From: Gemmatimonadota bacterium
GTDB lineage: Bacteria; Gemmatimonadota; Gemmatimonadetes; Palauibacterales; Palauibacteraceae
Assembly (NCBI GenBank): GCA_046757485.1
Contig: JBHHYJ010000002.1
Location: 8,073-72,072 of the forward strand
Reading direction: 5' to 3'
DNA length: 64,000 nt
Below the pieces are notes generated by a model. That model ran no database searches. It saw only the letters and a program-made list of their open reading frames with translations, and was not told where the DNA came from. This document shows, one piece after another, positions 1,417-23,543 of this stretch. How positions within the stretch are numbered: the stretch's first letter is position 1; each line of letters begins with the position of its first letter. The position numbers were made by a program, and so were the translations under genes.

Positions 1417-3141
1417 GTGAAGAGCCCGGGAGCCGCGTCCGCCGCTCTGCTGCTCGCCGTGCTCCCGCGCGTGACCGCGGGACAGGCCGGGGAGCGCGTG
1501 GAGACGCGGTCGGCCGGACAGGCGGAAGAGGAGGCTCTGGCCGCCCGCTGGCGGATGCCCCCCATGGAGATGGCGATGCCGATGCTCCCGGGGCTGCGGG
1601 ACCTCGTGCCCGATGTCTCCCCGTTCCTTCCCGGGCTGGGGGCAGACCTGACCGAGCTCCCGGAGGCGCGCCCTCCGTCCGTCGTCCGGCTGACCGACGG
1701 AGACACGCTCGACCTCGAGGCGGCCCTCCTGCGTCGCACGCTCGGGGACCGGGCCGTCAAGCTCTACGGTTTCAACGGAGAGCAGCCCGGCCCCCTGATT
1801 CGGGTTCGCCGGGGAGCCACCATCGTCGTCCGCTTCAGGAACCGGATCGAGCTTCCCATCACGCTCCGGTGGCACGGCGTCCGGCTGGAGAACCGTTACG
1901 ACGGCGTGCCCGGCCTGACCCAGAAGCCGGTCAGCCCCGGGGAGTCCTTCGTGTACCGGGTCCGGTTCGACGATCCCGGGCTTTTCTGGTATCACCCTCA
2001 TCAGCACGGGGAGATCGCCCAGGACCTCGGCCTGTACGGAAACATCCTCGTCGAGCCCGACCGGACGGACTACTACGCCCCGGTGAACCGGGAGGCGTTC
2101 CTCCTGCTCGACGACCTGCAGGTGGATGAGAAAGGGCTGCTGCCGTACGGGTTCGAGGCGCCGAACAACGCCCTCATGGGGCGGTTCGGCAATCTCCGCC
2201 TGGTGAACGGCGAGCCGGCGTACTCCCTCGAGGTCCACAGGGGAGAGGTCGTCCGGTTCTACGTCACCAACGCCTCGAACACGCGCACCTTCAACCTTTC
2301 CATGGGCCAGGCGCCGATGAAGCTGGTGGCCGCCGACCTGAGCAAGTACGAGCGGGAGGTCCGGGTGCCGAACGTGCCGGTCGCCCCGGGGCAGCGCTAC
2401 GTGATCGATGTCCACTTCCCCACCCCGGGCCGGGTGGCGATCACCAGCCACATCCAGGCGATGAACCATTTCGCCGGCGTGTTCGAGCCGCGGGTGGACA
2501 CGCTCGGAGCGGTGGTCGTGGACGAGAAGGCGGTGCAGGAGGAGTACGCCGAGGAGTTCGAGGAGCTCCGCGAGAACGAGGATGTGCGGGCCGACGTGGA
2601 GGGCCTGCGTGATTCCTTCGATCGACCCGTGGACCGGGAGCTGGTGCTCTCCGCCCGGGTAGGGGCCCTTCCCACCGTGGTCCTCGCGGTCATGGCGATG
2701 GACACGCTCTACTACCCACCGATCGAGTGGAACGACGCCATGCCGATGATGAACTGGCTCTCCACGGGTCGGGAGGTGCGGTGGATCGTGCACGAACCCG
2801 TCGCCGGCGGAGGGACGGCGGAGCTCCGACCGGCGGTCGGCTGGCGGTTTCGGCAGCACGACATCGTGAAGCTGCGGATTCGGAACCCCGCGCGCGGGTT
2901 CCATCCGATGCAACACCCGATTCATCTGCACGGACAGCGCTTCCTCGTCCTCGAGAGGGACGGAGTGCGGCAGTCCAACTTCGTGTGGCGGGACACGGTG
3001 CTCCTTCCGGTGGGGGCCACGGTGGATCTCCTGGTGGAGATGTCGAATCCGGGCCGCTGGATGCTGAACTGCCAGATTCCCGAGCACCTGGGATCCGGGA
3101 TGGCGATCACCTTCACGGTGCTTCCCTCTCCCGCCCGGTGA
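1417..3141 (+). CDS. Multicopper oxidase family protein (three-domain, laccase/CueO-like) with a non-canonical trinuclear copper site
   Basis: 574 aa with a Sec signal peptide. Cupredoxin motifs LRWHG, WYHPHQHG, HPIHLHG and C-terminal LNCQIPEHLGSGM. The T1 ligands Cys, His and Met are present, but the flanking T3 His residues are N and Q. GTG start. Confidence 0.85.
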   Translation: MKSPGAASAALLLAVLPRVTAGQAGERVETRSAGQAEEEALAARWRMPPMEMAMPMLPGLRDLVPDVSPFLPGLGADLTELPEARPPSVVRLTDGDTLDLEAALLRRTLGDRAVKLYGFNGEQPGPLIRVRRGATIVVRFRNRIELPITLRWHGVRLENRYDGVPGLTQKPVSPGESFVYRVRFDDPGLFWYHPHQHGEIAQDLGLYGNILVEPDRTDYYAPVNREAFLLLDDLQVDEKGLLPYGFEAPNNALMGRFGNLRLVNGEPAYSLEVHRGEVVRFYVTNASNTRTFNLSMGQAPMKLVAADLSKYEREVRVPNVPVAPGQRYVIDVHFPTPGRVAITSHIQAMNHFAGVFEPRVDTLGAVVVDEKAVQEEYAEEFEELRENEDVRADVEGLRDSFDRPVDRELVLSARVGALPTVVLAVMAMDTLYYPPIEWNDAMPMMNWLSTGREVRWIVHEPVAGGGTAELRPAVGWRFRQHDIVKLRIRNPARGFHPMQHPIHLHGQRFLVLERDGVRQSNFVWRDTVLLPVGATVDLLVEMSNPGRWMLNCQIPEHLGSGMAITFTVLPSPAR

Positions 3142-3830: not shown

Positions 3831-4068
3831 TCACGCCGCCGGCTCCCACCCCGGTCGCCCTTCGGCCTCGCCGCCGGCCATCGCCCCCCGTCCAGGTGCC
3901 GCCGCCATGGCCGCCGCACACGTGCGCGGACGGACCACGGCGAAGTACCTTCCGGTGCCAGGAGCCGGTCCGAGTCATGTCGCGGCCGCGCGCAGGGGTC
4001 TTTGGGTGCGCTCAGCCGCGACCGTGGGCCTCGAGTTCATCGTGACGACGTCGCAGCAGGAGGAAGAG

Positions 4069-5487
4069 ATGAGGCGAAGATTCCCGTCGGCTAAGAACCC
4101 TTTCACCTCGGCATGTGCCGGCGCCCTCCTCGTGGCGGCGGGTCCGGCGATCCTCGCCCACCCCGCTCTCGCCCAGCCGAGCCAGCCCGTGGTGACGCGC
4201 GGGACTCCCAACATCGAGGTCCTCGGGCACCGCCCGCTCGGGCCGGCGCTCAGCGTGGCAGACCTCGACGTCGAGCAGGAGCTTTCCCGGCCGTACGCCT
4301 ACGTCGCCCGGATGGCGTTCGGCCCGACGGGCACCAAGGGCACCGACATCATCGACATCAGCGATCCCTCGAGTCCGCGGGTGGTTTACCGGTGGCGGAT
4401 CGAGAACCAGGAGCTTCACCAACGGACGGGCGGGATGGACGTGAAGCACTTCAAGTGGAAGAACCGCTACTACGTCGTCCAATCCCTCCAGTTCGGCCAG
4501 GGAGGCCCGGACACGGACCTGGGGGCGGTCGTCCTCGACGTCACCGGACTCCCCGACGCCGCGAAGGTCAAGGAGGTGGCCCGCATCCGGGAGCCGGAGC
4601 ACCCCGGGGGTTTTCACAACATCTTCATCTACCGGCACTCCGACGGGCGGGTGTACCTCTTCACCACGATCCGGGGCCCGGGCGCCAACGTCTACGATCT
4701 GGGCAACGTCGTGGAGGGAAAGCCGGAGTCCGACTGGCGGGTGGCGAACGTCCCCGTGCCGCCGAGCCCGGAGTCCGCGGCCCTGCCGGTCCCCGGCGGG
4801 TTCTACCACGACTTCTACGTCGGCTTCCACCCGGCGACCGGCCAGGACCGTTTCTACGGGGGCGGGTCGGGCGGCTACTACATCTACGACGTGACCGACC
4901 TCCAGAGCCCGACGCTCCTCACCTCGATCACCGGCGTCTCCGGCGTCCGCTGGGGCCATACCTTCACCCCGACGCCCGATGGCAACTACGCCGTCGGCGA
5001 GACGGAGTACCAGTACGCCCCGCTCCGCATCTACGATCTCCGGCCCGGCCTGAACGGCGAGGTGCCGACGATCCGCGCCCCGATCGGCGCCTGGACAGCG
5101 AACTGGAAGAACCTGGCCCACAACCACGAGGTCCGTTGGCCGTACGTCTTCGTCTCCGGCTACCTGGACGGGCTCCAGGTGTTCGACATGCAGGACCCCG
5201 CGAACCCGATCACGGTGGGCTACTACGACACGTACCTCGGACCGTCGGCCGACCCCAGCAATCCCTCCTCCATCTTCAACGGGGCGTTCGGAGTGGACGT
5301 GCGGAACGCCGACGGCCTCATCGTCGTGAGCGACATGACGACCGGCTTCTGGACCTTCCGCATGGAGGGGTTCCAGGGGTGGAACGGCCACGACTGGGGA
5401 ATGCCGAACGTCTCCAGCGCCCAGGACTGGGAGAACGGTCCAGAGGGCGCCGTCCGGATGACGACCGACGAGGACAGCGGAGACTGA
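4069..5487 (+). CDS. Secreted LVIVD-repeat beta-propeller protein, tandem paralogue 1
   Basis: ATG at 4069 preceded by AGGAGGAAG. Signal peptide MRRRFPSAKNPFTSACAGALLVAAGPAILAHPALA. It has GLIVVSD-type LVIVD repeats. About 75-80% identity to the next two ORFs. Confidence 0.7.
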   Translation: MRRRFPSAKNPFTSACAGALLVAAGPAILAHPALAQPSQPVVTRGTPNIEVLGHRPLGPALSVADLDVEQELSRPYAYVARMAFGPTGTKGTDIIDISDPSSPRVVYRWRIENQELHQRTGGMDVKHFKWKNRYYVVQSLQFGQGGPDTDLGAVVLDVTGLPDAAKVKEVARIREPEHPGGFHNIFIYRHSDGRVYLFTTIRGPGANVYDLGNVVEGKPESDWRVANVPVPPSPESAALPVPGGFYHDFYVGFHPATGQDRFYGGGSGGYYIYDVTDLQSPTLLTSITGVSGVRWGHTFTPTPDGNYAVGETEYQYAPLRIYDLRPGLNGEVPTIRAPIGAWTANWKNLAHNHEVRWPYVFVSGYLDGLQVFDMQDPANPITVGYYDTYLGPSADPSNPSSIFNGAFGVDVRNADGLIVVSDMTTGFWTFRMEGFQGWNGHDWGMPNVSSAQDWENGPEGAVRMTTDEDSGD

Positions 5488-5494
5488 GAGGACC

Positions 5495-6892
5495 ATGAGA
5501 CACGGAACGGTGCGGGCGTGGGTGCCGGTTCTCCTGGCCGGGGGCGCCCTCGGGGCGCTCCCGCCGGCTCCGCTGGGAGCCCAGCAGGCGTACCTGGAGC
5601 GCCGGGGGGGCGGCATCGAGGTTCTCGGCCACCTGCCGCTGGGACCCGCTCTCAGCGTGGCCGACGTGGAGATCGAGCAGGATCTCTCCCGGCCGTTCGC
5701 CTACGTGGCCCGCATGCAGTATCGGGACGTCGGGGAGAAGGGGCTGGACGTCATCGACATCAGCGATCCCTCGAGTCCGCGGGTGATCTACCGGTGGCGG
5801 ATCGAGAACCAGGAGCTCCACCAGCGGACGGGCGGGATGGACGTGAAGCAGTTCAAGTGGAAGAGACGCTACTACGTCGTCCAGTCCCTCCAGTTCGGCC
5901 AGGGAGGGCCGGACCCGGATCTGGGGGCGGTCGTGCTCGACGTCACCGGGCTCCCTGATCCCGCGAAGGTGAAGGAGGTGGCCCGGATCCGGGAGCCCGA
6001 GCTGCCCGGGGGCTTCCACAACATCTTCGTGTACCGGCACTCCGACGGGCGGGTCTACCTCCTCTCCACCGTCTCCGGCCCGTTCGCCCACGTCTACGAT
6101 CTGGGGAACGTCGTGGAGGGGAAGGCCCGTGAAAGCTGGCTCGCGGCGCGGGTCCCCGTGCCCCCGGCGGCGGAGGAGCAGGGGCGTCGCACGGGCCGGC
6201 TGCGCGGCTACCACGACTTCTACGTCGGCTTCCACCCGGCCAGCGGCCAGGACCGCTTCTACGGGGGCGGCACCGGGGGATACTACGTGTACGACATCAC
6301 CGACCTGCGGAGCCCTCGCCTGCTCACCTCCATCGTGGGGGTGGCCGGCGTTCGCGGCGGACACACCTTCACGCCGACGCCCGACGGCCGCTATGCGGTC
6401 GGCGAGACGGAGTACCAGTACGCCCCGCTCCGCATCTACGATCTCCAGCCCGGCCTGAACGGCGAGCTGCCCGCGATCCGTCGCTCGATCGGCGCCTGGA
6501 CGGCGGACTGGAAGCACCTGTCCCACAACCACGAGGTCCGCTGGCCGTACGTCTTCGTCTCCGGTTACGAGGACGGGCTCCAGGTCTTCAGCCTCCTGGA
6601 TCCCGCGAACCCGGTGACCGTCGGGTACTACGACACGTACCCCGGCCCTCACAAGGTCGGGGCGTGCCGGGACCGGGTCTGCAACGGGGCGTTCGGGGTG
6701 GACGTGCGGAACGCCGACGGCCTCATCGTGGTCAGCGACTCGAGCACGGGCTTCTGGAGCTTCCGCATGGAGGGGTTCCAGGGGTGGAACGGCCGCGACT
6801 GGGGAGTGCCGAACATCTCCAGCGCCCAGGATTGGGAGAACGGTCCCGAGGGGGCCACCCGGGTCGCCGACGACGAGGATGCCGGAGGCTGA
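5495..6892 (+). CDS. Secreted LVIVD-repeat beta-propeller protein, tandem paralogue 2
   Basis: 465 aa. Signal peptide MRHGTVRAWVPVLLAGGALGAL. Long blocks of identity with paralogue 1 (IEVLGHxPLGPALSVAD, YVVQSLQFGQGGPD, WPYVFVSGY, GLIVVSD). Confidence 0.7.
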   Translation: MRHGTVRAWVPVLLAGGALGALPPAPLGAQQAYLERRGGGIEVLGHLPLGPALSVADVEIEQDLSRPFAYVARMQYRDVGEKGLDVIDISDPSSPRVIYRWRIENQELHQRTGGMDVKQFKWKRRYYVVQSLQFGQGGPDPDLGAVVLDVTGLPDPAKVKEVARIREPELPGGFHNIFVYRHSDGRVYLLSTVSGPFAHVYDLGNVVEGKARESWLAARVPVPPAAEEQGRRTGRLRGYHDFYVGFHPASGQDRFYGGGTGGYYVYDITDLRSPRLLTSIVGVAGVRGGHTFTPTPDGRYAVGETEYQYAPLRIYDLQPGLNGELPAIRRSIGAWTADWKHLSHNHEVRWPYVFVSGYEDGLQVFSLLDPANPVTVGYYDTYPGPHKVGACRDRVCNGAFGVDVRNADGLIVVSDSSTGFWSFRMEGFQGWNGRDWGVPNISSAQDWENGPEGATRVADDEDAGG

Positions 6893-8440: not shown

Positions 8441-9148
8441 TTGACGGTCAACAACCTGGCGCCGAACGACAGCCTGGCTTCGGCGATCAACGCGGCCACC
8501 TTCGTGCTCAAAGCGGACGTGATCAGCGCCAGCTGGGGGATCGGTCCGGCACCCGACCCCGCGATCGCCCAACAGCTCGAGTGGGCCGTCAAGGACGGAC
8601 GGAAGCCCGACCTGCCCTTCTTTCCCCCTCTGGGCACGCCCGTGGTCTTCTCGGCCGGCAACACGAGGGGTTCCGTCGCCTTCCCTGCCAGCGACTCGAA
8701 CGCGATCGCTGTGAGCGGGCTGGACCGCACGGGGGCCTTGTGGGAAGACCCCGACCCAACCCGCGGCAGCAACTTCGGGGCCGAGATCGAGATCGCCGCC
8801 TTCAGCGGCAGCGGCGCGGCGTGCTTCGGGGAGATCACGACGACGGACCTCTCGGGGGCGGAGGGGTGCAACAACGGGCCGGGGGGCAACGTGAACTACA
8901 CCACAGGGTTCAGCGGGACCTCGGCAGCGGCCCCGCAGGTGGCCGGCGCCATCGCGCTGCTCCTGCAGAGCGAGCCAGGCCTCACGGTCGCACAGGTCCG
9001 CCAGCGGCTGGCGAGCTCGGCGGACAAGGGGAATACAGGCTTCTGGAACAATTCCCTCAGGTTCGGCGCGGGGAAGCTGAACGTGGGCGCCCTGCTCGGC
9101 GTGTGGCCGCCGCCCGGGAGCTGTGCCCCGAACCAGGTCGTCTGCTGA
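8441..9148 (+). pseudogene. 5'-truncated subtilisin-like serine protease (peptidase S8) remnant
   Basis: Contains the S8 oxyanion-hole region VVFSAGN and the catalytic Ser motif GTSAAAPQVAGAIALL. It lacks the N-terminal signal/propeptide, the Asp (DTG) and the His (HGT) blocks. The only start is TTG at 8441, and the frame stays open upstream into paralogue 3 without a start codon. Confidence 0.55.
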
Positions 9149-9222
9149 GGGTGGAGGCGACGCTCGAGCGCTGCCGTCGCGTGTATAGAACGCCAGCCTG
9201 TGACGGGCACGGTAGCCGGCGC

Positions 9223-10419
9223 ATGCGCTTCACCGGACGGCCTGGGTCCGGGCGAGGGAGGCTCCCTCTGACCGTGATGGTTCTCGGCCTGTCGCTTCCC
9301 GGCTGCTCGGACTCGACCGGCCCCGACGAGCCCATCGGACCCGAGGGTCCGTGGCTTTCGGTCCGCGTGGCGAAAGGCGGGGCGTTCACCTGCGGCCTGA
9401 CCGCCGAGCGGGAAGCCTTCTGTTGGGGAGGGAACGCGGATGGGCAGCTGGGGAACGGGACCCGCGAGGGAAGCCTCAGTCCGGGGCCGGTGGTCGGCGG
9501 GCTCACCTTCGAGCAGATCAGCCCGGGGATTGCGCACACCTGCGCCGTGACGCCGGAGGGGAAGGCGTTCTGCTGGGGAAGGAACGACCGCACCGGCGCG
9601 CTGGGGGACGGAACGACGATGGACCGGCTGGCGCCGACCCCCGTGGCCGGCGGGCTCAGCTTCCGACAGATCAGTGCCGGGAGCGCTCACACCTGCGCGC
9701 TGACGCCGGCGGGGGAGGCGTTCTGCTGGGGGAACGACGCGCACGGCCAGCTCGGAGATGGACAGAGCAACGGCGGCCCGAACCCGCTCCCGGCTCCGGT
9801 GGCCGGTGGCCTCACCTTCCAGCAGATCAGTGCGGGCCAGTTCGGGACCTGCGGCCTGACACGTGAGGGGAAGGCGTTCTGCTGGGGCGCCAACCACAAG
9901 GGCACGCTCGGGGACGGGACGATGACGGACCGGGCCACCCCCGGCCCCGTGGCGGGAGGTTTGAGCTTCGCCCGGATCAGCGCAGGGCTCCGCCACGTGT
10001 GTGGCGTGACCCCAGAGGGGGAAGCTTATTGCTGGGGTAGGAACAGCTTAGGTGCCCTGGGCGATGGCGCGATGGTCGATCGCCCGGTACCCACCCGCGT
10101 GGCCACCGAGCTACGGTTCCAACAGATCAGTGCGGGCGAGCAGAGCTGTGCGCTGACGCGCGAGGGTCAAGCCTTCTGCTGGGGGGACAACAGCTTCGGC
10201 GAGCTGGGCGACGGCACGACGATGCATCGGCTCACGCCGACGCCGGTGGCCGGCGGGCTCAGCTTCCACGAGATCAGCACCGGCTTCAGCAGCAGCTGTG
10301 GAGTGACCCTCGACGGAGAGGCGTTCTGTTGGGGCGCTCGTGGGCTCGTCGGTGACGGGACCAACATGGATCGCCTCGTGCCCACCCGAATCCCGCCACC
10401 GCAGACCCGGCAGGGTTAG
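9223..10419 (+). CDS. RCC1-repeat (regulator of chromosome condensation-like) beta-propeller lipoprotein
   Basis: About seven repeats of the form GxxHTCALT(x)G(x)AFCWGxNxxGQLGDG. N-terminal MRFTGRPGSGRGRLPLTVMVLGLSLPGC ends in a lipobox. The upstream part of track ORF 8581-10419 overlaps the S8 remnant in another frame and is rejected. Confidence 0.75.
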   Translation: MRFTGRPGSGRGRLPLTVMVLGLSLPGCSDSTGPDEPIGPEGPWLSVRVAKGGAFTCGLTAEREAFCWGGNADGQLGNGTREGSLSPGPVVGGLTFEQISPGIAHTCAVTPEGKAFCWGRNDRTGALGDGTTMDRLAPTPVAGGLSFRQISAGSAHTCALTPAGEAFCWGNDAHGQLGDGQSNGGPNPLPAPVAGGLTFQQISAGQFGTCGLTREGKAFCWGANHKGTLGDGTMTDRATPGPVAGGLSFARISAGLRHVCGVTPEGEAYCWGRNSLGALGDGAMVDRPVPTRVATELRFQQISAGEQSCALTREGQAFCWGDNSFGELGDGTTMHRLTPTPVAGGLSFHEISTGFSSSCGVTLDGEAFCWGARGLVGDGTNMDRLVPTRIPPPQTRQG

Positions 10420-10438: not shown

Positions 10439-12505
10439 TCATGATTTCGACGTTCTATCCCCGTCCCCGGCCGCTTCCTTCGGCTTCACCTGGATGAGCC
10501 GGTCGATGAGGAGTCGGCCGGCCCCGCTCCTTACCTCCAGGTGCAGCTCCCCGGGCCGCCGCGGCGTGATCTCGAAGTCGAACGTCTCCCCGATGCTCAC
10601 CGTCCGCTCCGCGGGCACCAGCGCTCGCTGGTGGGCCGGCAGGTCCCAGCCGTCCTCGGCCACCGGCCGCCACAGGACCGGGGCGCCGCCCCGGACGAGA
10701 CGCACCCGCAGGTTGCCGTTTCCCAACGTGATGTTCATGAGCCGCAGTCGGTAGGTCGTTCCGACCCGAAACTCCGTCGGCCCGGGCTTGGACGTCCCGT
10801 TCAACTGAGGTCCCTGGCCCGTCGGGGAGAGCCCGAGCAGCAGGATCCGATCCGTCTCGGGGTCCCACTCCTCGCCCTCGTCCAGCACCACGAAGGCCCC
10901 GTACAGCCCCGAGCCCTGCTGGCGCAGGTCGCTCACGTGGGTGTGGTACATGTAGCTTCCGGCCCTGGGCGGCGTGATCCGCATCTCGAAGGAGTCTCCC
11001 GGCATGATCGCCGGGGTCAGCTTCTTCGGGTAGCCGCTCGCCCCCGCCACCCCGTCGAAGTAGCTCTCGATCTCCAGCCCGTGCCAGTGGACCTGGGTGG
11101 GCTCCGGGGTCCGGTTGATCACCGTCACGCTGGTGGGTTCTCCCTTCCACAGGACGATGGGGGAGCCGGGCAGGCGCACGGAGTCCGGGGGCGGCTCCCG
11201 CTCCCCCTCCTGGAGGACGTAGGCGTAGCGTTTCTGGAACGGCTTCTGGAGGAACGCGCGGGTCGCGGAGTCGGCCGGCACGGAGTCCGCCTGCACGAAG
11301 AGGCGCAGCCGCCGGCGCCGCGGCTCCCGGGGAACCCATCCCTCGGGCGGCCGGATGTAGGTGAAGAGGAGGAGGCCTCCCATGCCAGTCTCCGCGTGGT
11401 GCTCGGCGTCCCCCTCGTGCCCGACGAAGATCTTCCGGAAGCGGACCGCCTCCGTCTCCTCCTCCCCCGGCCGGAGAGAGGGGTTGGGGACGACGTGGAA
11501 GCTGTTGTGGCAGTGGAAGATCCACCCTCCTGGCCGGTCCGGCGACCAGACGATCTTCATCGTGGTCCCCGGCGCCATCCGCTCGGTGACCGCCATGCGC
11601 CGCTGGGCCAGCCAGTAGATCGTGTCCCGGCCGATGTCGCCGCGGGAGTCCACCCGGTAGAAGAAGCCGTGCAGGTGCATCGGGTGGACCGCACCCGAGG
11701 CGTTGATCAGTCGCCAGCGGATCGAGTCTCCGAGCGCGTAGGTGAAGCGCTCGGTGAGCGGCCACGGCCGCCCGTTGATCGTCAGGAACTCCTTGCCGAA
11801 ATCGGGCTCGCCGTTCGGGTGCTTGCCGGGGATCCAGATCTGCATCACGAAAACGCGGTCCGTGGGCGGGCCCGCGGCGTCCGGTGGATCCACGATGAGC
11901 GCGCCGGCCAGGGGGGCGTCCTCGGCGATCCGGATCGCCGTGGGCGAGCCCTTCAGACGCCCCCGGTAGTAGTAGGTCCCCTCGGCGTCGGCCGGAAAGC
12001 GAACCTCCCGGCTCTCCCCCGGCCGCACGACGAGGCTGTCCATCGCCGCCACCCGGCGGGCCGCGAGCCCCCACACGACGAGATCCGCATCCAGCGGGTT
12101 CCGCACCGTCGCCCGGATCTCGGTCCCCAGGGGAACGCGGATCATCGGGCCGGGAATCTGGAGCTCCTTCCCGGCCTCCCCGAACGCCAGGACCTCGCCT
12201 CCCGGCTCTTCCTCGCCCAGCAGGTGCCACACGCCGCGCCGCACCTCGAGCTCCAGGGTCAGCACGCCGTCTCGTAGCGTGCCGGCCGGCGTCTGGTTGT
12301 CGTTCCACCCCACGCTCGGAAGGCGACCGACCGACGAGAGCTCGCCTCCCGCGGCGTTTCCTCGCACATCGGAGAGCGCGGGGGGCGCCGACGGCCAATC
12401 CGAGCCGGGGCCCGACGGCCCCGGGCCGGGGAGCCACACCCAGAGACCCGCGAGCCCCGCCAAGCTCAACCAGGTGAAACGCTGTCCAAGGCTTTCGCCC
12501 CTCAT
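10439..12505 (-). CDS. Multicopper oxidase family protein, four cupredoxin-like domains with unusual motif order
   Basis: 688 aa with signal peptide. HPMHLHG and HCHNSFH (T1/T3 set) at about aa 265-330 precede VHWHG and YMYHTHV (T2/T3 set) at about aa 470-520. The first and last cupredoxin-like domains lack copper ligands (LVVWGLAARR in place of HWHG). Confidence 0.85.
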   Translation of the reverse strand: MRGESLGQRFTWLSLAGLAGLWVWLPGPGPSGPGSDWPSAPPALSDVRGNAAGGELSSVGRLPSVGWNDNQTPAGTLRDGVLTLELEVRRGVWHLLGEEEPGGEVLAFGEAGKELQIPGPMIRVPLGTEIRATVRNPLDADLVVWGLAARRVAAMDSLVVRPGESREVRFPADAEGTYYYRGRLKGSPTAIRIAEDAPLAGALIVDPPDAAGPPTDRVFVMQIWIPGKHPNGEPDFGKEFLTINGRPWPLTERFTYALGDSIRWRLINASGAVHPMHLHGFFYRVDSRGDIGRDTIYWLAQRRMAVTERMAPGTTMKIVWSPDRPGGWIFHCHNSFHVVPNPSLRPGEEETEAVRFRKIFVGHEGDAEHHAETGMGGLLLFTYIRPPEGWVPREPRRRRLRLFVQADSVPADSATRAFLQKPFQKRYAYVLQEGEREPPPDSVRLPGSPIVLWKGEPTSVTVINRTPEPTQVHWHGLEIESYFDGVAGASGYPKKLTPAIMPGDSFEMRITPPRAGSYMYHTHVSDLRQQGSGLYGAFVVLDEGEEWDPETDRILLLGLSPTGQGPQLNGTSKPGPTEFRVGTTYRLRLMNITLGNGNLRVRLVRGGAPVLWRPVAEDGWDLPAHQRALVPAERTVSIGETFDFEITPRRPGELHLEVRSGAGRLLIDRLIQVKPKEAAGDGDRTSKS

Positions 12506-13110
12506 CGGTCCTCCCCCGCGCCGACGTCAGGAAGGATCATGATGTGGGAGAAGAGCTGTCCGGAGTTCATCATCCACGGCGCGCCGTCGCGTCGCTCCTT
12601 CGAGAGACCGACCGCCTCGGCCGTCGCGTACGGCGTGACGAGGATGTAGAGGCGCTCCACCTCATCGCTCAACGCGTTTGTGCCCGCGTCATAGCCGTCG
12701 GCGGGGCCGCTGAGCACGTAGAGTGCCGCCGGGCCATCCGGAAGGTCGAGGTCGCCGGCCTTCGCCTCCGCATTCAACCTGGCCGTGACGTCGCTCGCCT
12801 CCAGCCCGAGTCGCCGAAGCTCGCGCCGCCGCTCGAGGAGAGGTCGCAAGGACTCTGCATAGCACAGGGACCGAAACCGGTCATCGTCCGGATCGTCCGC
12901 CTCGCACACGATTCCGTTGGTGCCGCGCCGGAGCTCGACGAGGGGCTGGCCGTCTCGGTATCCGAGCACGGTCGCCTCCTCGCGCAGCGCCTCGGGCAGG
13001 GGAAGGACCGCCGAGGCCAGCTGTTGCGAGAGCGGCGGCTGCTGGCCCGTCAGGAGAGGAGGCAGGCAGAGCAGCAGAAAGCTCGGGATGGCAAGCGTCC
13101 ATCGTCGCAT
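12502..13110 (-). CDS. Hypothetical secreted protein, first gene of the oxidase operon
   Basis: 202 aa. Signal peptide MRRWTLAIPSFLLLCLPPLLTG. Its stop overlaps the downstream oxidase start by 4 nt. No recognisable family. Confidence 0.5.
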   Translation of the reverse strand: MRRWTLAIPSFLLLCLPPLLTGQQPPLSQQLASAVLPLPEALREEATVLGYRDGQPLVELRRGTNGIVCEADDPDDDRFRSLCYAESLRPLLERRRELRRLGLEASDVTARLNAEAKAGDLDLPDGPAALYVLSGPADGYDAGTNALSDEVERLYILVTPYATAEAVGLSKERRDGAPWMMNSGQLFSHIMILPDVGAGEDR

Positions 13111-13343: not shown

Positions 13344-16300
13344 TCAGCGGAGCTCGGCCAGGCGGTGGCGGGCAGCGGCCACGGTGCTCTCGAGCTCCGG
13401 CTCGGCGGCTGTCCACAGCTCGACGAAGCGAGCGTAGTGAGTGGCGGCCTGTGGACCGTTGCCCAGCACGTCGAGGATCTGGGCGCGACGGAGGTGGGAG
13501 GGGGCCAGGAAAGGCAGATCGTGCCCGGCGGGATCCGGAAAGGTCGAGTACCAGCGCATTGCCTCGGTCGCTCGCCCCAGCTCCTGATTCACGACTCCGC
13601 GCAGGTAGCGCTCGTAGCCGCGAGGATAGTCCAGCAGGTGCTCGTAGGACGCCCGTGGAGGAAGGGGGAGGCCGTCGAGAATCACGCGGGCCTTCTCCGG
13701 ATTCCCTTCCCGCCGGGCGGCTTCCGCCCGAAGCACCCCCGCCAGCCGCCGCGCCAATCGGGACCCCGGACCTTCCTCCACCGCCAGGGTGTCGATGAGC
13801 CGGCGCGCCGTCCGCGCGTCCCCCATGCGCAGGGAGAGCAACCCCTCCAGGTAATACCGGCGAGGCCGGTACAGGCCAGGCCACAGGATCGGGGGAAACT
13901 CCGCGCTCTGCCACCAGATCGGGTCACTCCGCGGGGGGAGCGGCCGGTTCCGCTCCAGCGCGTCCAGGGCCCCCCACAGGCTGTCCCGCGACTCCAGCGA
14001 GTGGGGAGCGAGCGGAAGCACAGCCGCCATGGCTCGATACTCCAGCACCCGGGCCCTCGGCAGAGACCCCGATCTCCGCAACAGCTCCCCGGCTTCCCGA
14101 AACCGCCCCTGAGCCAGGAGGAGCTGGCCAAGGAGCAGCTGGAGCTTCGCCCGTTCCGCTCGGGGGAGCTCCCCCGCGAGCACGTAGCGGGCCATCCGGA
14201 CGGCACCTTCCAGATTGTTCGTGTTCGAGGCGACGCTCGCGAGGACGTGTCGGGCGCGAACCGGGGCCGCCGCGACAGCTCGAATCGCTCGTTCCTGCCG
14301 AGCGAGATCTCCGGAGAGAAACGCCCGCAGGGCTTCAAGCTCCAGGGCCCACCGGCCCGTGGCACGGTATGCGTGAGCGAGGAGGGTGAGAGAGTCCAGC
14401 TCGGCGACGTTCCTTTCGCGAGCCGCCAGCCGGGCCAGATGGACGATCGGCTCGACGCGCGAGGGCTCCAGGGCTACGGCCCGCTCGAGCGCCTCCCGCG
14501 CTTCCAGCGACGCATGGCCGAGGCTGGGTCCCCAGTGGAAGCGAAGCTCGCCGAGCTGTTCCCAGGCCTCCGCGTGGCTCGGTCGCAGCGTGACCGCCTC
14601 CCGATAGTACTCCTCGGCCGAGTCCACGACACCTGCCAGGTGATACCGCCACGCCGCGACGAGCAGGCTGTCGTCCCGGGAGAGCCGGTCCGCATGGCGC
14701 AGGGCCGCTCTGGCGGCGGGGACGGGGATCCCCGAGCGTCCGCCCGCGTACGCCGCGCTGCTCAGACGATAATGGGCCAGCGCGAAGGCCGAGTCCTCGC
14801 GCACGGCTTCCTGGTACTCCCGGACCGCTTCCTCGTAGCGGCCGGCGCGCAGGGCTTCCTCTCCACGCAGGAACTCCTTGAGCGCATTCAGGTTCTCGGT
14901 CGCTCGCGTCGCCCGCCGCGCGACCTGGGTGACGCTCCGCAGACCCAGGAGCTGCGCCGCGAGCCGATCGGCCAGCGTGAATACGTCAGCCGTGGAAGCT
15001 TCCACGACTGCCTCCGTGGGACCGCCGAGGCCGAAGTGGTCGCGCCCGTACAACGCGGCACGCACCCGGAGCCTGCCGCCCACCTCGGTGATCTCTCCCA
15101 GAACGAAGGAGCCGGCTCCGAACCGGCGTGCCACCGCGGCCGCGGCGTCCGGCTCCCATCGGGGCTCGGAGCCGCCATCCAGGAAGCCGAGCAGGGAGCG
15201 AGAATCCACGCTCCGAAGAGCTCCGGCTCCATCCAGGTTAGCGGACAGGAGGCCGACCATCCCCTCCCGCAGGAACGCGAACTCCTCGTCCCCCTGGTAG
15301 GCGAACGGAAAGACGGCGACCACGCCCTCGGACCACGTCTCGGAGGAAGACTCGGTCCGGCCGACCAGCAGCCCGATCGCCAGCAGAGCGAGCGCACTCG
15401 CCGACAGCCCACTCATGACGGCCCACCGGCGCAAACCCCGCCAGGATCGCCGGGCGGCTGCCCGCGGGGGTCCCGCCTCCGACTCTCGTCGGCCGGGGGA
15501 CGCCGTCCCGTCGGTCGGCACCGGGCCATCGGTCGAACCGCTCTCGGGCGACCGCGACGCCACCGAGGCCCCCGCCACGGCGGCCCCTGCCACCGGCTCC
15601 GTGGCGGCGTCACCCCGAGAGCGGAGGCCGACGCCGGCCCGGGCCCCGGCCCGGGCGGGCCCCGACCGTTTCACCTCCGCCACCACGGCCCGGGTCTGCG
15701 GTGAGGGCTCCACCCCGTACGCCGCCGAGACCCGAGCCGCGAACTCCTCGTACGCCCGGACCGCCCCCGTCCGGTCGCCGGCGCTCACGAGCAGAGAGAG
15801 CAGACGGCGCGCGACGACCTCATCGTCCCGCGACAGCACGAGGGCACGCCGAACGTAGTGTACGGCCAGATCATGGTTTCCGTCCGCCTCGGCCGCCGCC
15901 GCGAGCCGGCCGGCGACGGCCACCGCCCGGTGGCAGAGGCGACCCCGCTCCGCCTCCAACCAGCGCTCGAACTCGAACGCCTCCCCGATGAAGAAGCCCT
16001 CCAGAAGGTCTCCCCGATACAGCTCCAGGGCATCCGCCTCTCGACCCGCTTCCAGGCAGCGCTCGAACTCGACCGCGTCACACTGCACCCGGGCGAGATC
16101 CACGCGCAGTTCCCCATCGCCTCGGGAGAGGATCGTCTCGGCACCCAGGGCGCGGCGCAGGTAGTGGATCGCGTTCCGCAGCGCTCCGCGGGCGCGCGCC
16201 TCGTCCGACTCCGGCCAGAAGACGCCGAGGAGCGCGTCCCGGCGCTCCGGGCCACGGGCGCTCCGCAGCGTCAGGTAGGCGAACAGGGCCAACCGGCGCG

Positions 16301-16382
16301 GCTGCGCGAGCACGGAACGGATCTCTTGGCCGCCCAGATGACGCAACTCGACGGCACCCAGGAGGCGAAACTCGATCGTCAT
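13344..16382 (-). CDS. SARP/AfsR-family (BTAD) transcriptional regulator with a transmembrane segment and C-terminal TPR-repeat region
   Basis: 1012 aa. N-terminal OmpR-type winged helix plus bacterial transcriptional activation domain (LLGAVELRHLGGQ...LALFAYLTL..., RGDLLEGFF, ERWLEAER). One TM helix (WAVMSGLSASALALLAIGLLVG) follows, then about 600 aa of TPR-like repeats. Confidence 0.8.
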   Translation of the reverse strand: MTIEFRLLGAVELRHLGGQEIRSVLAQPRRLALFAYLTLRSARGPERRDALLGVFWPESDEARARGALRNAIHYLRRALGAETILSRGDGELRVDLARVQCDAVEFERCLEAGREADALELYRGDLLEGFFIGEAFEFERWLEAERGRLCHRAVAVAGRLAAAAEADGNHDLAVHYVRRALVLSRDDEVVARRLLSLLVSAGDRTGAVRAYEEFAARVSAAYGVEPSPQTRAVVAEVKRSGPARAGARAGVGLRSRGDAATEPVAGAAVAGASVASRSPESGSTDGPVPTDGTASPGRRESEAGPPRAAARRSWRGLRRWAVMSGLSASALALLAIGLLVGRTESSSETWSEGVVAVFPFAYQGDEEFAFLREGMVGLLSANLDGAGALRSVDSRSLLGFLDGGSEPRWEPDAAAAVARRFGAGSFVLGEITEVGGRLRVRAALYGRDHFGLGGPTEAVVEASTADVFTLADRLAAQLLGLRSVTQVARRATRATENLNALKEFLRGEEALRAGRYEEAVREYQEAVREDSAFALAHYRLSSAAYAGGRSGIPVPAARAALRHADRLSRDDSLLVAAWRYHLAGVVDSAEEYYREAVTLRPSHAEAWEQLGELRFHWGPSLGHASLEAREALERAVALEPSRVEPIVHLARLAARERNVAELDSLTLLAHAYRATGRWALELEALRAFLSGDLARQERAIRAVAAAPVRARHVLASVASNTNNLEGAVRMARYVLAGELPRAERAKLQLLLGQLLLAQGRFREAGELLRRSGSLPRARVLEYRAMAAVLPLAPHSLESRDSLWGALDALERNRPLPPRSDPIWWQSAEFPPILWPGLYRPRRYYLEGLLSLRMGDARTARRLIDTLAVEEGPGSRLARRLAGVLRAEAARREGNPEKARVILDGLPLPPRASYEHLLDYPRGYERYLRGVVNQELGRATEAMRWYSTFPDPAGHDLPFLAPSHLRRAQILDVLGNGPQAATHYARFVELWTAAEPELESTVAAARHRLAELR

Positions 16383-21247: not shown

Positions 21248-22432
21248 TCAGGCCACGACCAACAGCGCCGTACCGTACATGAGGAGGAGGCCGAGCGCCA
21301 ATCCCCCGGCGTTCAACGGCTCGAAGATGCCCTGGGGCCACTCCCGGTGCACGAGCTTCCCGACGACCCACACGACCTGGAAGATGGCCCCCGCGCCGAG
21401 CGCCAGGAAGAGTGTGGCGGCGATCGGCGAGTACGAGAAGCCGCCGATCCACGCGCCGCCGATGGTGGGCAGGCCGGCCGTGGCGCCCATCCCGGCCAGC
21501 TTCCGAAGACCCGGTCGATCGCCCGCCACGGGCGCGACGATCGCCAGGCCCTCCGTCGTGTTGTGGAGCGCGAAGCCGATCACCAGAAAGCTCCCCAGGG
21601 CGATCTCGCCGACCGAGTACGCGGCGCCGATCGCCAGCCCTTCTCCCAGGTTGTGGAGACCGATCCCCACGGCGATCAGATAGGCGATGCGGAGCCGAGA
21701 GACGGCCCTCGTGGGCGCCCTGTCTCCCGCTTCCCCGAGAGCGCGGAGCGCGAGGACCGCCACGCTGACCCCGATCAGGGTGAGGCCCACCCCCTGAAAC
21801 GCCCCCGGGACCCGCTCCGCCGTCTCCAGCGCTTCCTCCAGGGCATCCACGCCCAGGAAGATGAGGAGCCCCAGGGTGAGACTCAGGAAGAAGTGGAGCC
21901 ACCGCCGATCCACGCGCCGGAGGAAAGGAAACCACAGGAGGCCGAGGAGAACCGGGACCACCCCGGCGTACAGGCCCAAAAGGGTGAACGTCCCCAGGTA
22001 GCGGGCGTTCGGCCGCGGCGTCAGGGTCGCCACCTCGACCACCCGGGTGAAGGTGAGCCCCGTGGAAGTCACGATGGTAACCTGGTGCGGCTCACCCTCC
22101 AGCCACGGATAGGCCACGGTGAGGGTTCTCCGCCCGAGACGTGGGATCGTGAGGCTCCCGTCGATCTCGAACAGCCGGTAGGCCACGTCCACCTGGAGCT
22201 GGGCGATGGTCGACGCTTCCGGTCCACCGTTCACGAGGTGAACCTCCATCGTGCCCGGCTCCGGGAAGGTGACCCGCTCGATCGTCAGCTCTTCGAGCGG
22301 CGGGAAAGCGGCCCGGAACGGCCCCGTCGGGTCGAACCGCACGAAGAGGCCTATCAGCCCCGCCAGCAGGAAGAGGGGCAGCAACCCCCATACCCACCGA
22401 CGCCCCGAGGCCACCCCTCGCCTCTCAGCCAT
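21248..22432 (-). CDS. ZIP family metal (Zn/Fe) transporter with an N-terminal extracytoplasmic extension
   Basis: C-terminal GLHNLGEGLAIGAAY and ALHNTTEGLAI are ZIP signature helices. The probable start is M29 of the track ORF (MAERRGVASGRRWVWGLLPLF), overlapping the upstream gene stop by 8 nt. Confidence 0.8.
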   Translation of the reverse strand: MAERRGVASGRRWVWGLLPLFLLAGLIGLFVRFDPTGPFRAAFPPLEELTIERVTFPEPGTMEVHLVNGGPEASTIAQLQVDVAYRLFEIDGSLTIPRLGRRTLTVAYPWLEGEPHQVTIVTSTGLTFTRVVEVATLTPRPNARYLGTFTLLGLYAGVVPVLLGLLWFPFLRRVDRRWLHFFLSLTLGLLIFLGVDALEEALETAERVPGAFQGVGLTLIGVSVAVLALRALGEAGDRAPTRAVSRLRIAYLIAVGIGLHNLGEGLAIGAAYSVGEIALGSFLVIGFALHNTTEGLAIVAPVAGDRPGLRKLAGMGATAGLPTIGGAWIGGFSYSPIAATLFLALGAGAIFQVVWVVGKLVHREWPQGIFEPLNAGGLALGLLLMYGTALLVVA

Positions 22433-23543
22433 ACTTGTACACCGGCACCCCGTCGTTGGCGGCCAGCGCGGGCACGGCGTCGAAGAATCCCAGCCAACCC
22501 AGCTCTGCGAACTCACTTTGGTGGGCGTGAAACAGGTGGAGGCCCGGATGCTCGAGCTCCATCTCCAGAATGTGCCGCTCGCCCTGGCAGAGCATCACGG
22601 TGTCGGTGAGCTCGTACTGGTCGGTCCGCGTGCCCGTCCGGTATACCCGGAACATCCCGGCGTGTAGGTGCAGGGAGTTCACCGGATCGAACTCGGTGAT
22701 GTTGACCAGGTAGATGCGAACAGGCTCGCCCACTCCGACCCGGATCGGGTGGGTCTGATAGTAGAAGGCCGCGGTGTTGACCGCGTACACCTCGTTCTCC
22801 TCGTCGAAATTCGTGTCGAAGCCGTTCATCACCATCACGAGCTCGCGGGCGGGTGGGCGACCCTCCGCCGGATCCACGATGAAGGCCCCGTACAGGCCTC
22901 TGTGGATGTGCCGCTTGAGGGGCAAGGTGTGGCAGTGATACAGGTGGAGGCCGAACGGCTTCGCCTCGAACTCGTAGGTGAACTTCTCCCCTGGCTCCAC
23001 GACCGGCTCCAGTCCGTCCATCTCCGGTGGGTGGGTCCCGTGGAAGTGGATCGTGTGGGGGTGGGATCCGGCGTTCACGAAGTGAACCCGCAGAAGGTCT
23101 CCCTCCGTGCAGCGGATGGTCGGGCCGGGAACCTGGCCGTTGTAGGTGTAGGCCGGAAACCATACTCCCGGGGCCACCTCGATCTCCCGGTCGAGGGCGA
23201 CCATCTGGAACTCGCGGACCGTTCGCCCACCGCCCGTGCGACTCACCTGGCCGAAGTCGAAGTCGGTGAGGAACGTCTCCGGGTCGAAGCCGTCCCGAGG
23301 CTTTCCGTCCCCGATCACTCCCATCCGGAGCTGGTGGCTCCCGGGCGAACCTCCCTGTGGCCCGCTCAGCTCGTGCAGCGCCTCCTCTTCCTGCAGGCCG
23401 GCAGTCGGGACTCCGGCCGCCGCCAAGGAGGCGGAGGCACCGCTTCGCGAAGCGAGACGCAAGACCGCCGTGCCGGAGAGCCCGGCCACACCGGCCGCCC
23501 CCAGCTTCAGCCAATCCCGTCGCGTCAGCTCCTGCGGCTTCAT
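22425..23543 (-). CDS. Two-domain multicopper oxidase (small laccase/NirK-like fold), Tat-secreted
   Basis: 372 aa. Tat motif TRRDWLKLGAAGVAG. His-rich copper motifs HPHTIHFHG, LYHCH...HIH, HLHAGM and LFHAHQ. Confidence 0.75.
   Translation of the reverse strand: MKPQELTRRDWLKLGAAGVAGLSGTAVLRLASRSGASASLAAAGVPTAGLQEEEALHELSGPQGGSPGSHQLRMGVIGDGKPRDGFDPETFLTDFDFGQVSRTGGGRTVREFQMVALDREIEVAPGVWFPAYTYNGQVPGPTIRCTEGDLLRVHFVNAGSHPHTIHFHGTHPPEMDGLEPVVEPGEKFTYEFEAKPFGLHLYHCHTLPLKRHIHRGLYGAFIVDPAEGRPPARELVMVMNGFDTNFDEENEVYAVNTAAFYYQTHPIRVGVGEPVRIYLVNITEFDPVNSLHLHAGMFRVYRTGTRTDQYELTDTVMLCQGERHILEMELEHPGLHLFHAHQSEFAELGWLGFFDAVPALAANDGVPVYKYG

Follow-up and report, generated by a model that had tools for sequence, protein, structure and literature searches.

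The 64,000-nucleotide stretch of Gemmatimonadota DNA analysed here (the window) encodes, at positions 10439–12505 on the minus strand, a 688-aa protein that is probably a secreted, Sec-exported multicopper oxidase built from two two-domain units in tandem (D1-D2-D1-D2). Complementary loss of copper ligands from the two units would leave a single trinuclear copper cluster between domains 2 and 3 of the same chain. The gene was established from the list of open reading frames (ORFs), Pfam matches, an AF2 structure model and a database protein with 100% identity. This identical NCBI entry (P0001), from a Gemmatimonadota metagenome-assembled genome (MAG), is annotated as 'multicopper oxidase domain-containing protein'.

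Copper motifs in the inner two of four domains

The span 10439–13110 consists of two minus-strand ORFs, the oxidase gene and an upstream gene for a 202-aa secreted protein (12502–13110), which overlap by 4 bp (ATGA) and are each preceded by a GGAGGA Shine–Dalgarno sequence. A promoter and terminator scan around the genes was uninformative in this DNA of 70% GC. All four multicopper-oxidase motifs are present in the 688-aa protein: HxHG, HxH, HxxHxH, and HCHxxxH plus the axial residue. Checked by translation, and all on the minus strand, they read HPMHLHG (aa 274–280, nt 11666–11686), HCHNSFH (aa 331–337, nt 11495–11515), HWHG (aa 473–476, nt 11078–11089) and YHTH (aa 520–523, nt 10937–10948). 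The pair of motifs for the type 1 (T1) and type 3 (T3) coppers stands ahead of the pair for type 2 (T2) and T3, opposite to three-domain oxidases. A preliminary description of this DNA had proposed this order, and both translation and Pfam agree with it.

Parsing with hidden Markov models likewise gave an order that is not the conventional one, with Pfam Cu-oxidase_2 at aa 241–338 (E = 6.9e-24) followed by Cu-oxidase_3 at aa 445–543 (E = 1.6e-27). The protein was also scanned with Pfam in four pieces, which revealed a degenerate, ligand-less Cu-oxidase_3 domain at about 116–208 (30 bits) and a weak match to the middle-type Cu-oxidase family at about 544–594. The overall order is therefore Cu-oxidase_3 (degenerate), Cu-oxidase_2, Cu-oxidase_3 and Cu-oxidase, and not the Cu-oxidase_3, Cu-oxidase, Cu-oxidase_2 series required of three-domain oxidases. 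The NCBIfam equivalogs all scored far under their cut-offs (CopA, 102 bits versus 479; CueO, 53 versus 525).

The chain begins with a predicted Sec-type signal peptide (about aa 1–27, nt 12425–12505), recognized by its basic N terminus and hydrophobic core and not by a dedicated cleavage-site predictor. A Pro/Gly-rich disordered stretch follows to about aa 57, and the predicted local distance difference test (pLDDT) score of the AF2 model is below 50 at residues 1–57. Sec-like N termini occur in all 58 aligned homologues, some of them with a lipobox, and no twin-arginine motif recurs among these 58 N termini.

Domain 1 (aa 62–210, nt 11876–12322; the 30-bit Cu-oxidase_3 match) is an N-terminal-type cupredoxin without copper ligands, with VVWGL where HxHG is expected and YYYRGR where HxH is expected. 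A relic histidine of HxHG is found at position 145 in 142 of 232 homologues. When domain-1 segments from 25 family members were searched against Pfam, 24 matched Cu-oxidase_3 and one matched Cu-oxidase. The best PDB matches of the domain-1 profile are first domains, namely those of NirK nitrite reductases, two-domain oxidases, ascorbate oxidase and Thermus laccase. Domain 2 (aa 211–392, nt 11330–11875; Cu-oxidase_2) is the T1 domain and also carries four trinuclear-cluster histidines; the codon of Met375, the presumed axial T1 ligand, lies at nt 11381–11383. The linker and domain 3 (aa 393–546, nt 10868–11329; Cu-oxidase_3), again of N-terminal type, contain the four other cluster histidines.

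Domain 4 (aa 547–676, nt 10478–10867) is a ligand-free cupredoxin with the weak Cu-oxidase match. Its segments matched Cu-oxidase in 4 of the 25 members and Cu-oxidase_3 in none (0/25), and its profile finds laccase middle domains in the PDB. The sequence also resembles domain 2 of two-domain oxidases, with which it is colinear, LRVRLVRGG taking the place of HPMHIHG. Matches of domain 4 to RecA were discarded as a repeat artefact. The absence of copper ligands from both terminal domains had been noted in the preliminary description, and it holds here for domains 1 and 4.

Ligand conservation and the T1 loop

Ligand conservation was assessed on an alignment of 232 full-length homologues (38–100% identity). 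Eleven of the 12 canonical ligands (His274, 277, 279, 331, 333, 337, 473, 475, 521, 523 and Cys332) are invariant in 232/232, and the twelfth, Met375, is kept in 231, the exception having Leu. A pseudo-oxidase was ruled out, every ligand being conserved, as was a gene-fusion or assembly artefact, given 232 continuous homologues. Because the ligand set is complete and conserved, the protein is expected to be an active oxidase.

The canonical T1 loop follows the pattern Cys-x4-His-x4-Met/Leu/Phe, in which four residues separate His from Met. Here Cys332-x4-His337 fits, and Met375 comes only after a family-specific insertion (aa 338–374, nt 11384–11494, minus strand) that was delimited by conservation, length distribution and the AF2 model. 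This insertion, 25–38 aa long across the family, separates the T1 histidine of HCHxxxH from Met375, is partly helical in the AF2 model (helices 352–361 and 367–373) and carries His370 (95% conserved) and His363 (69%). The second T1 histidine could be either His337 or His370, because His370 sits at exactly Met minus 5, the HxxxxM spacing. As to substrate, we lean tentatively towards metal ions, for example Cu(I), Fe(II) or Mn(II), for the single and weak reason that a His/acid-rich insertion adjoins the T1 site.

A probable tandem of two two-domain units

Three lines of evidence bear on the origin of the four domains. First, one two-domain protein, the Chroococcidiopsis plasmid 'copper oxidase' WP_015162943.1, aligns both to residues 50–337 (31% identity, E = 2e-27) and to residues 444–662 (26% identity, E = 1e-17). 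Query domain 1 has other residues in place of the HWHG and YHSH motifs of this protein, and domain 4 has other residues in place of its HPMHIHG and HCH. Second, comparison of the four domain sub-alignments with hhalign paired D1 with D3 (93.9%) and D2 with D4 (88%), and also D2 with D3 (95.3%); the D1–D2, D1–D4 and D3–D4 comparisons were not significant. Last, the first and second halves of the protein align colinearly with each other across the domain boundary. Since both halves match one two-domain oxidase, D1 resembles D3 and D2 resembles D4, and the halves are colinear, we conclude that the protein is probably a tandem of two-domain units. Both halves also align to a 372-aa two-domain oxidase encoded elsewhere in the window. 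The two-domain laccase in PDB entry 2zwn aligns in permuted fashion, query residues 444–540 with its domain 1 and residues 201–341 with its domain 2.

A predicted cluster at the domain 2/3 junction

The distribution of ligands allows us to propose how such an enzyme would work. The first unit would have retained only its domain-2 sites, that is, the T1 site (His274, Cys332, His337 or His370, and Met375) and cluster His 277, 279, 331 and 333; the second would have retained only its domain-1 sites, His473, 475, 521 and 523. Because ligand loss is complementary between the units, a single trinuclear cluster would be placed at the domain 2/3 junction, inside one chain. This junction would be equivalent to the inter-subunit interface of trimeric two-domain oxidases and to the domain 2/3 interface of the six-domain MnxG and Fox1 oxidases. 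We suggest that substrate is oxidised at the domain-2 T1 site, single electrons at a time, and that these travel along the His331-Cys332-His333 bridge as far as the cluster, the site at which O2 would be reduced to water. Domains 1 and 4 would then have a structural role.

The preliminary description had called for structure prediction, and the AF2 model, computed from a 58-sequence alignment (pLDDT 86.6; predicted template modelling score (pTM) 0.86), shows four beta-sandwich domains behind the disordered 57-residue N terminus. In a Foldseek search of the PDB, the top folds were six-domain proteins: factor V (4bxs_V, query-normalized template modelling score (TMq) 0.58), ceruloplasmin (5n0k, 0.56) and the Mnx complex subunit MnxG (9bxa_A, 0.56; rank 14). 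The four-domain factor VIII heavy chain (4bdv_A) reached a target-normalized score (TMt) of 0.58, and three-domain oxidases reached a TMq of about 0.31 only.

Some observations count against a tandem oxidase with an intrachain cluster. At a TMq of about 0.57, the root-mean-square deviation is 7–8 Å, so that the packing is similar, and not identical, to that of four domains of the six-domain ring. The non-canonical spacing from His337 to Met375 makes the T1 ligand set partly uncertain. Finally, homologous loci offer no informative conserved gene context for the oxidase.

The cluster might instead form between chains, domain 2 of one meeting domain 3 of another, or a partner might complete a six-domain-like ring; neither arrangement would have the monomer as its functional unit. 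In two-domain oxidases, clusters occur only between trimer subunits (PMC13151041). The model resembles a six-domain ring, of which four domains would occupy no more than two thirds. Another oxidase gene, of the two-domain kind, is present in the window (22425–23543), and the 202-aa partner recurs nearby. However, the monomer pTM of 0.86 indicates confident domain packing, across 66 loci the oxidase has no cupredoxin gene as a conserved neighbour, and the 202-aa gene accompanies the oxidase in just 5 of 64 loci. We consider an interchain or partner-completed cluster unlikely.

Relationship to known multicopper oxidases

A 2020 review recognizes two-, three- and six-domain classes of multicopper oxidase (PMC7036934), and in LccED, as relayed by another paper, 11 of the 16 superfamilies are three-domain and one is six-domain (PMC10298561). 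Romano 2017 gives no information on which domains hold copper sites. No description of a four-domain multicopper oxidase was found in the literature searched, and the four-domain form itself appears to be undescribed.

The reversed motif order has a precedent, because the six-domain MnxG and Fox1 oxidases share this layout: the bacterial MnxG-like enzymes carry their sole mononuclear site in domain 2 and, like algal Fox1, have their trinuclear histidines distributed over domains 2 and 3 (Vasin et al. 2013; PMC3600357). The likeness extends to the details, with T1 in domain 2, cluster histidines split over domains 2 and 3, HxxHxH and HCH ahead of HxHG and HxH, odd and even domain types in alternation, and a strong fold match to MnxG 9bxa_A (TMq 0.56). 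Unlike MnxG and Fox1, which have six domains and 1217–2681 aa, the present protein has four domains and 688 aa (600–690 aa across the family), it comes without MnxE- or MnxF-like partners, and the sequence searches brought out no close relationship to these oxidases.

One could picture a descendant of a six-domain MnxG- or Fox1-type protein from which domains 5 and 6 were lost. The published bacterial six-domain oxidases have the same ligand layout (PMC3600357), the folds that match best are those of six-domain proteins, MnxG 9bxa_A among them, and some family members are labelled 'manganese oxidase' by JGI. By sequence, however, the nearest solved relatives are two- and three-domain oxidases (2zwn, 3g5w and 4f7k). 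MnxG appears neither among the 60 best PDB sequence matches listed nor in the complete list of domain-4 matches. Nor is there a six-domain protein among the 150 best cluster representatives, the longer ones being hydrolase fusions. Because the sequence is closer to two- and three-domain oxidases and no six-domain relative appears among the nearest 150, we favour independent doubling of a two-domain unit, as judged from these comparisons, and regard truncation as improbable.

The closest sequence relatives outside the family are the two-domain type B oxidases (2zwn, SLAC-like proteins and WP_015162943.1), one of which aligns to each half, and which likewise place a cluster at the interface between D2 and the next D1. 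They differ in keeping ligands in both domains and in needing a homotrimer for their three clusters, whereas the four-domain oxidase would consist of two fused units, each minus half its ligands, with one cluster and one T1 site left. The best overall folds belong to eukaryotic proteins of only 12–13% sequence identity, namely ceruloplasmin, factor V and, with its four cupredoxin domains (A1-A2), the heavy chain of factor VIII.

With three-domain oxidases (laccase, CueO, CopA and ascorbate oxidase), the protein shares the four copper motifs, the T1-Cys-His electron path and the cupredoxin folds. Its domains 3–4 resemble their domains 1–2, and its domain 2 resembles their domain 3. It differs in its reversed motif order, its extra N-terminal domain and a fold similarity of about 0.31 (TMq). 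The preliminary description had invoked a circularly permuted or domain-shuffled architecture. In such a scheme, a three-domain oxidase would have been duplicated and trimmed to D2-D3-D1-D2, or its domains shuffled; domains 3–4 do align contiguously with laccase domains 1–2 (1hfu 59–217; 6vow 65–226), domain 2 aligns with laccase domain 3, and domains 2, 3 and 4 are thus a cyclic reordering of D1-D2-D3. The scheme predicts a middle-type N-terminal domain resembling domain 4, but domain 1 is of N-terminal type (Cu-oxidase_3 in 24/25 members, Cu-oxidase in 1/25), its PDB matches are all first domains, its hhalign match to domain 4 is weak (probability 5.8% and 43.7%) and domains 1–2 align as an intact unit to a two-domain oxidase, so that the permutation model is largely refuted by the sequence comparisons and is very improbable beside the tandem arrangement.

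Evolutionary schemes derive the larger multicopper oxidases from trimeric two-domain ancestors. It is possible, although we hold it to be doubtful, that the present proteins represent an undescribed fourth structural class ('4dMCO'), a covalent pair of two-domain units in a single chain with one internal cluster, as a 2 × 2 intermediate between the trimeric two-domain and six-domain forms. In the same tentative proposal, a secreted Cys/His/Met protein that lacks a PDB fold match would have been taken up by one subclade, either to deliver copper or as an accessory subunit filling the vacant third of the ring. A widespread, strictly conserved four-domain form would add a class to the two-, three- and six-domain scheme. 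It would also provide a natural test of whether a single D2/D1 junction works outside a closed six-domain ring, and of the course of ligand loss after duplication and the role of ligand-less domains.

Distribution of the family

The 120 best database matches listed are 52–71% identical to the window protein, about 565–830 aa long and nearly all full length. An exhaustive HMMER search over 1.84 billion cluster representatives yielded 625 matches below 1e-30; nearly all of the best 150 are 600–690 aa long, with a single match over query residues 60–670. Relatives of the oxidase are encoded at no fewer than 571 loci (that is, at least 571) in species-representative genomes. Among the 80 loci kept, 73 are from Gemmatimonadota, and the remainder are from MAGs labelled Bacteroidota (Parafilimonas, Chitinophagaceae), Acidobacteriota (including Terriglobales), Clostridia or Gammaproteobacteria, or are unclassified. 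Gemmatimonadota are a common soil phylum, and the family, being abundant in it, may contribute to metal or phenolic oxidation in soil. The named strain Gemmatirosa kalamazoonensis KBS708 carries a copy with 42% identity on its plasmid 1 (NZ_CP007129.1, 418958–420655), which possibly opens the family to experiment.

In five longer relatives (P0226, P0258, P0306, P0242 and P0321; 930–1670 aa), the four-domain module is joined to an amidohydrolase, peptidase S9, alpha/beta-hydrolase or PD40 region. Either genuine fusion or the merging of gene calls in high-GC metagenomes may account for them, and they were rejected as candidate six-domain forms.

The companion 202-aa protein

The gene upstream of the oxidase (12502–13110, minus strand) appears to be translationally coupled to it through the ATGA overlap and the GGAGGA sites, and its product would be a facultative partner. 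The 202-aa protein, which starts with a signal peptide, matches nothing in Pfam or NCBIfam. Its 79 homologues are mostly unnamed, the named ones being hypothetical proteins of Gemmatimonadota or Longimicrobiaceae MAGs. The AF2 model is confident (pLDDT 90.7) and found no fold match in the PDB (best E = 0.4). Cys69, Tyr84, Met181, His189 and Met191 do not vary within the family, and Cys83 hardly does; these residues could make up a Cu(I)-type site. One paralogue (P0173) shares the NCBI locus-tag prefix and so probably comes from the same MAG.

In 5 of 64 adequately flanked loci, the 202-aa gene directly adjoins an oxidase gene of the same orientation; it precedes the oxidase (upstream) in the window and in L009 and follows it (downstream) in L013, L015 and L021. 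The oxidases of these five loci are all at least 52% identical to the window protein. Most family members lack the gene beside them, and its homologues are also found away from any oxidase. Because adjacency is retained despite variable gene order, a functional link between the two proteins is suggested in that subclade. The co-expression put forward in the preliminary description is thus plausible, given the 4-bp overlap and the recurrent pairing, but it concerns a subclade and is no feature of the family.

Gene neighbourhood

Clustering of neighbours across 66 homologous loci brought out only Ser/Thr-kinase/TPR genes, large examples of which are found no more than two genes away from the oxidase in 20 of the 66. 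Such genes are expected to be numerous in Gemmatimonadota, and for this reason we judge them to be probably background. The neighbours in the window are LVIVD, subtilase, RCC1 and BTAD-TPR genes, none of them metal-related. Upstream of the operon lies a gene for a 1012-aa BTAD and TPR regulator (13344–16382, minus strand). On the other side, two overlapping ORFs occupy 8441–10419 (plus strand). A 235-aa ORF that matches only the C-terminal part of the subtilase domain overlaps the start of an RCC1-repeat ORF with a lipoprotein-like signal sequence, and the RCC1 ORF converges on the oxidase gene and ends 19 bp from its stop codon. Two LVIVD-repeat genes lie upstream (3907–6892, plus strand).

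Two-, three- and four-domain oxidase genes all occur within 24 kb of the window. The gene at 1417–3141 (plus strand) encodes a 574-aa three-domain oxidase-like protein with the canonical Pfam order, in which RWHG stands for HWHG and NCQ for HCH. Its four T1 ligands look intact and three of the eight trinuclear histidines are missing, and it may be a T1-only pseudo-oxidase. The 372-aa two-domain multicopper oxidase (22425–23543, minus strand) has HTIHFHG and YHCH in domain 1, which holds T1, and HLH and HAH in domain 2; the gene beside it (21248–22516, minus strand) gives a weak ZIP-transporter match.

The nearest two-domain relatives of the four-domain protein, annotated 'copper oxidase', are encoded on the Chroococcidiopsis thermalis plasmid pCHRO.01 (L088; NC_019699.1, 47428–51288), where they have a DUF4396 membrane protein on one side and a P-type ATPase for heavy metals on the other. 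The DUF4396 pairing recurs on other plasmids, which points to a copper-handling module.

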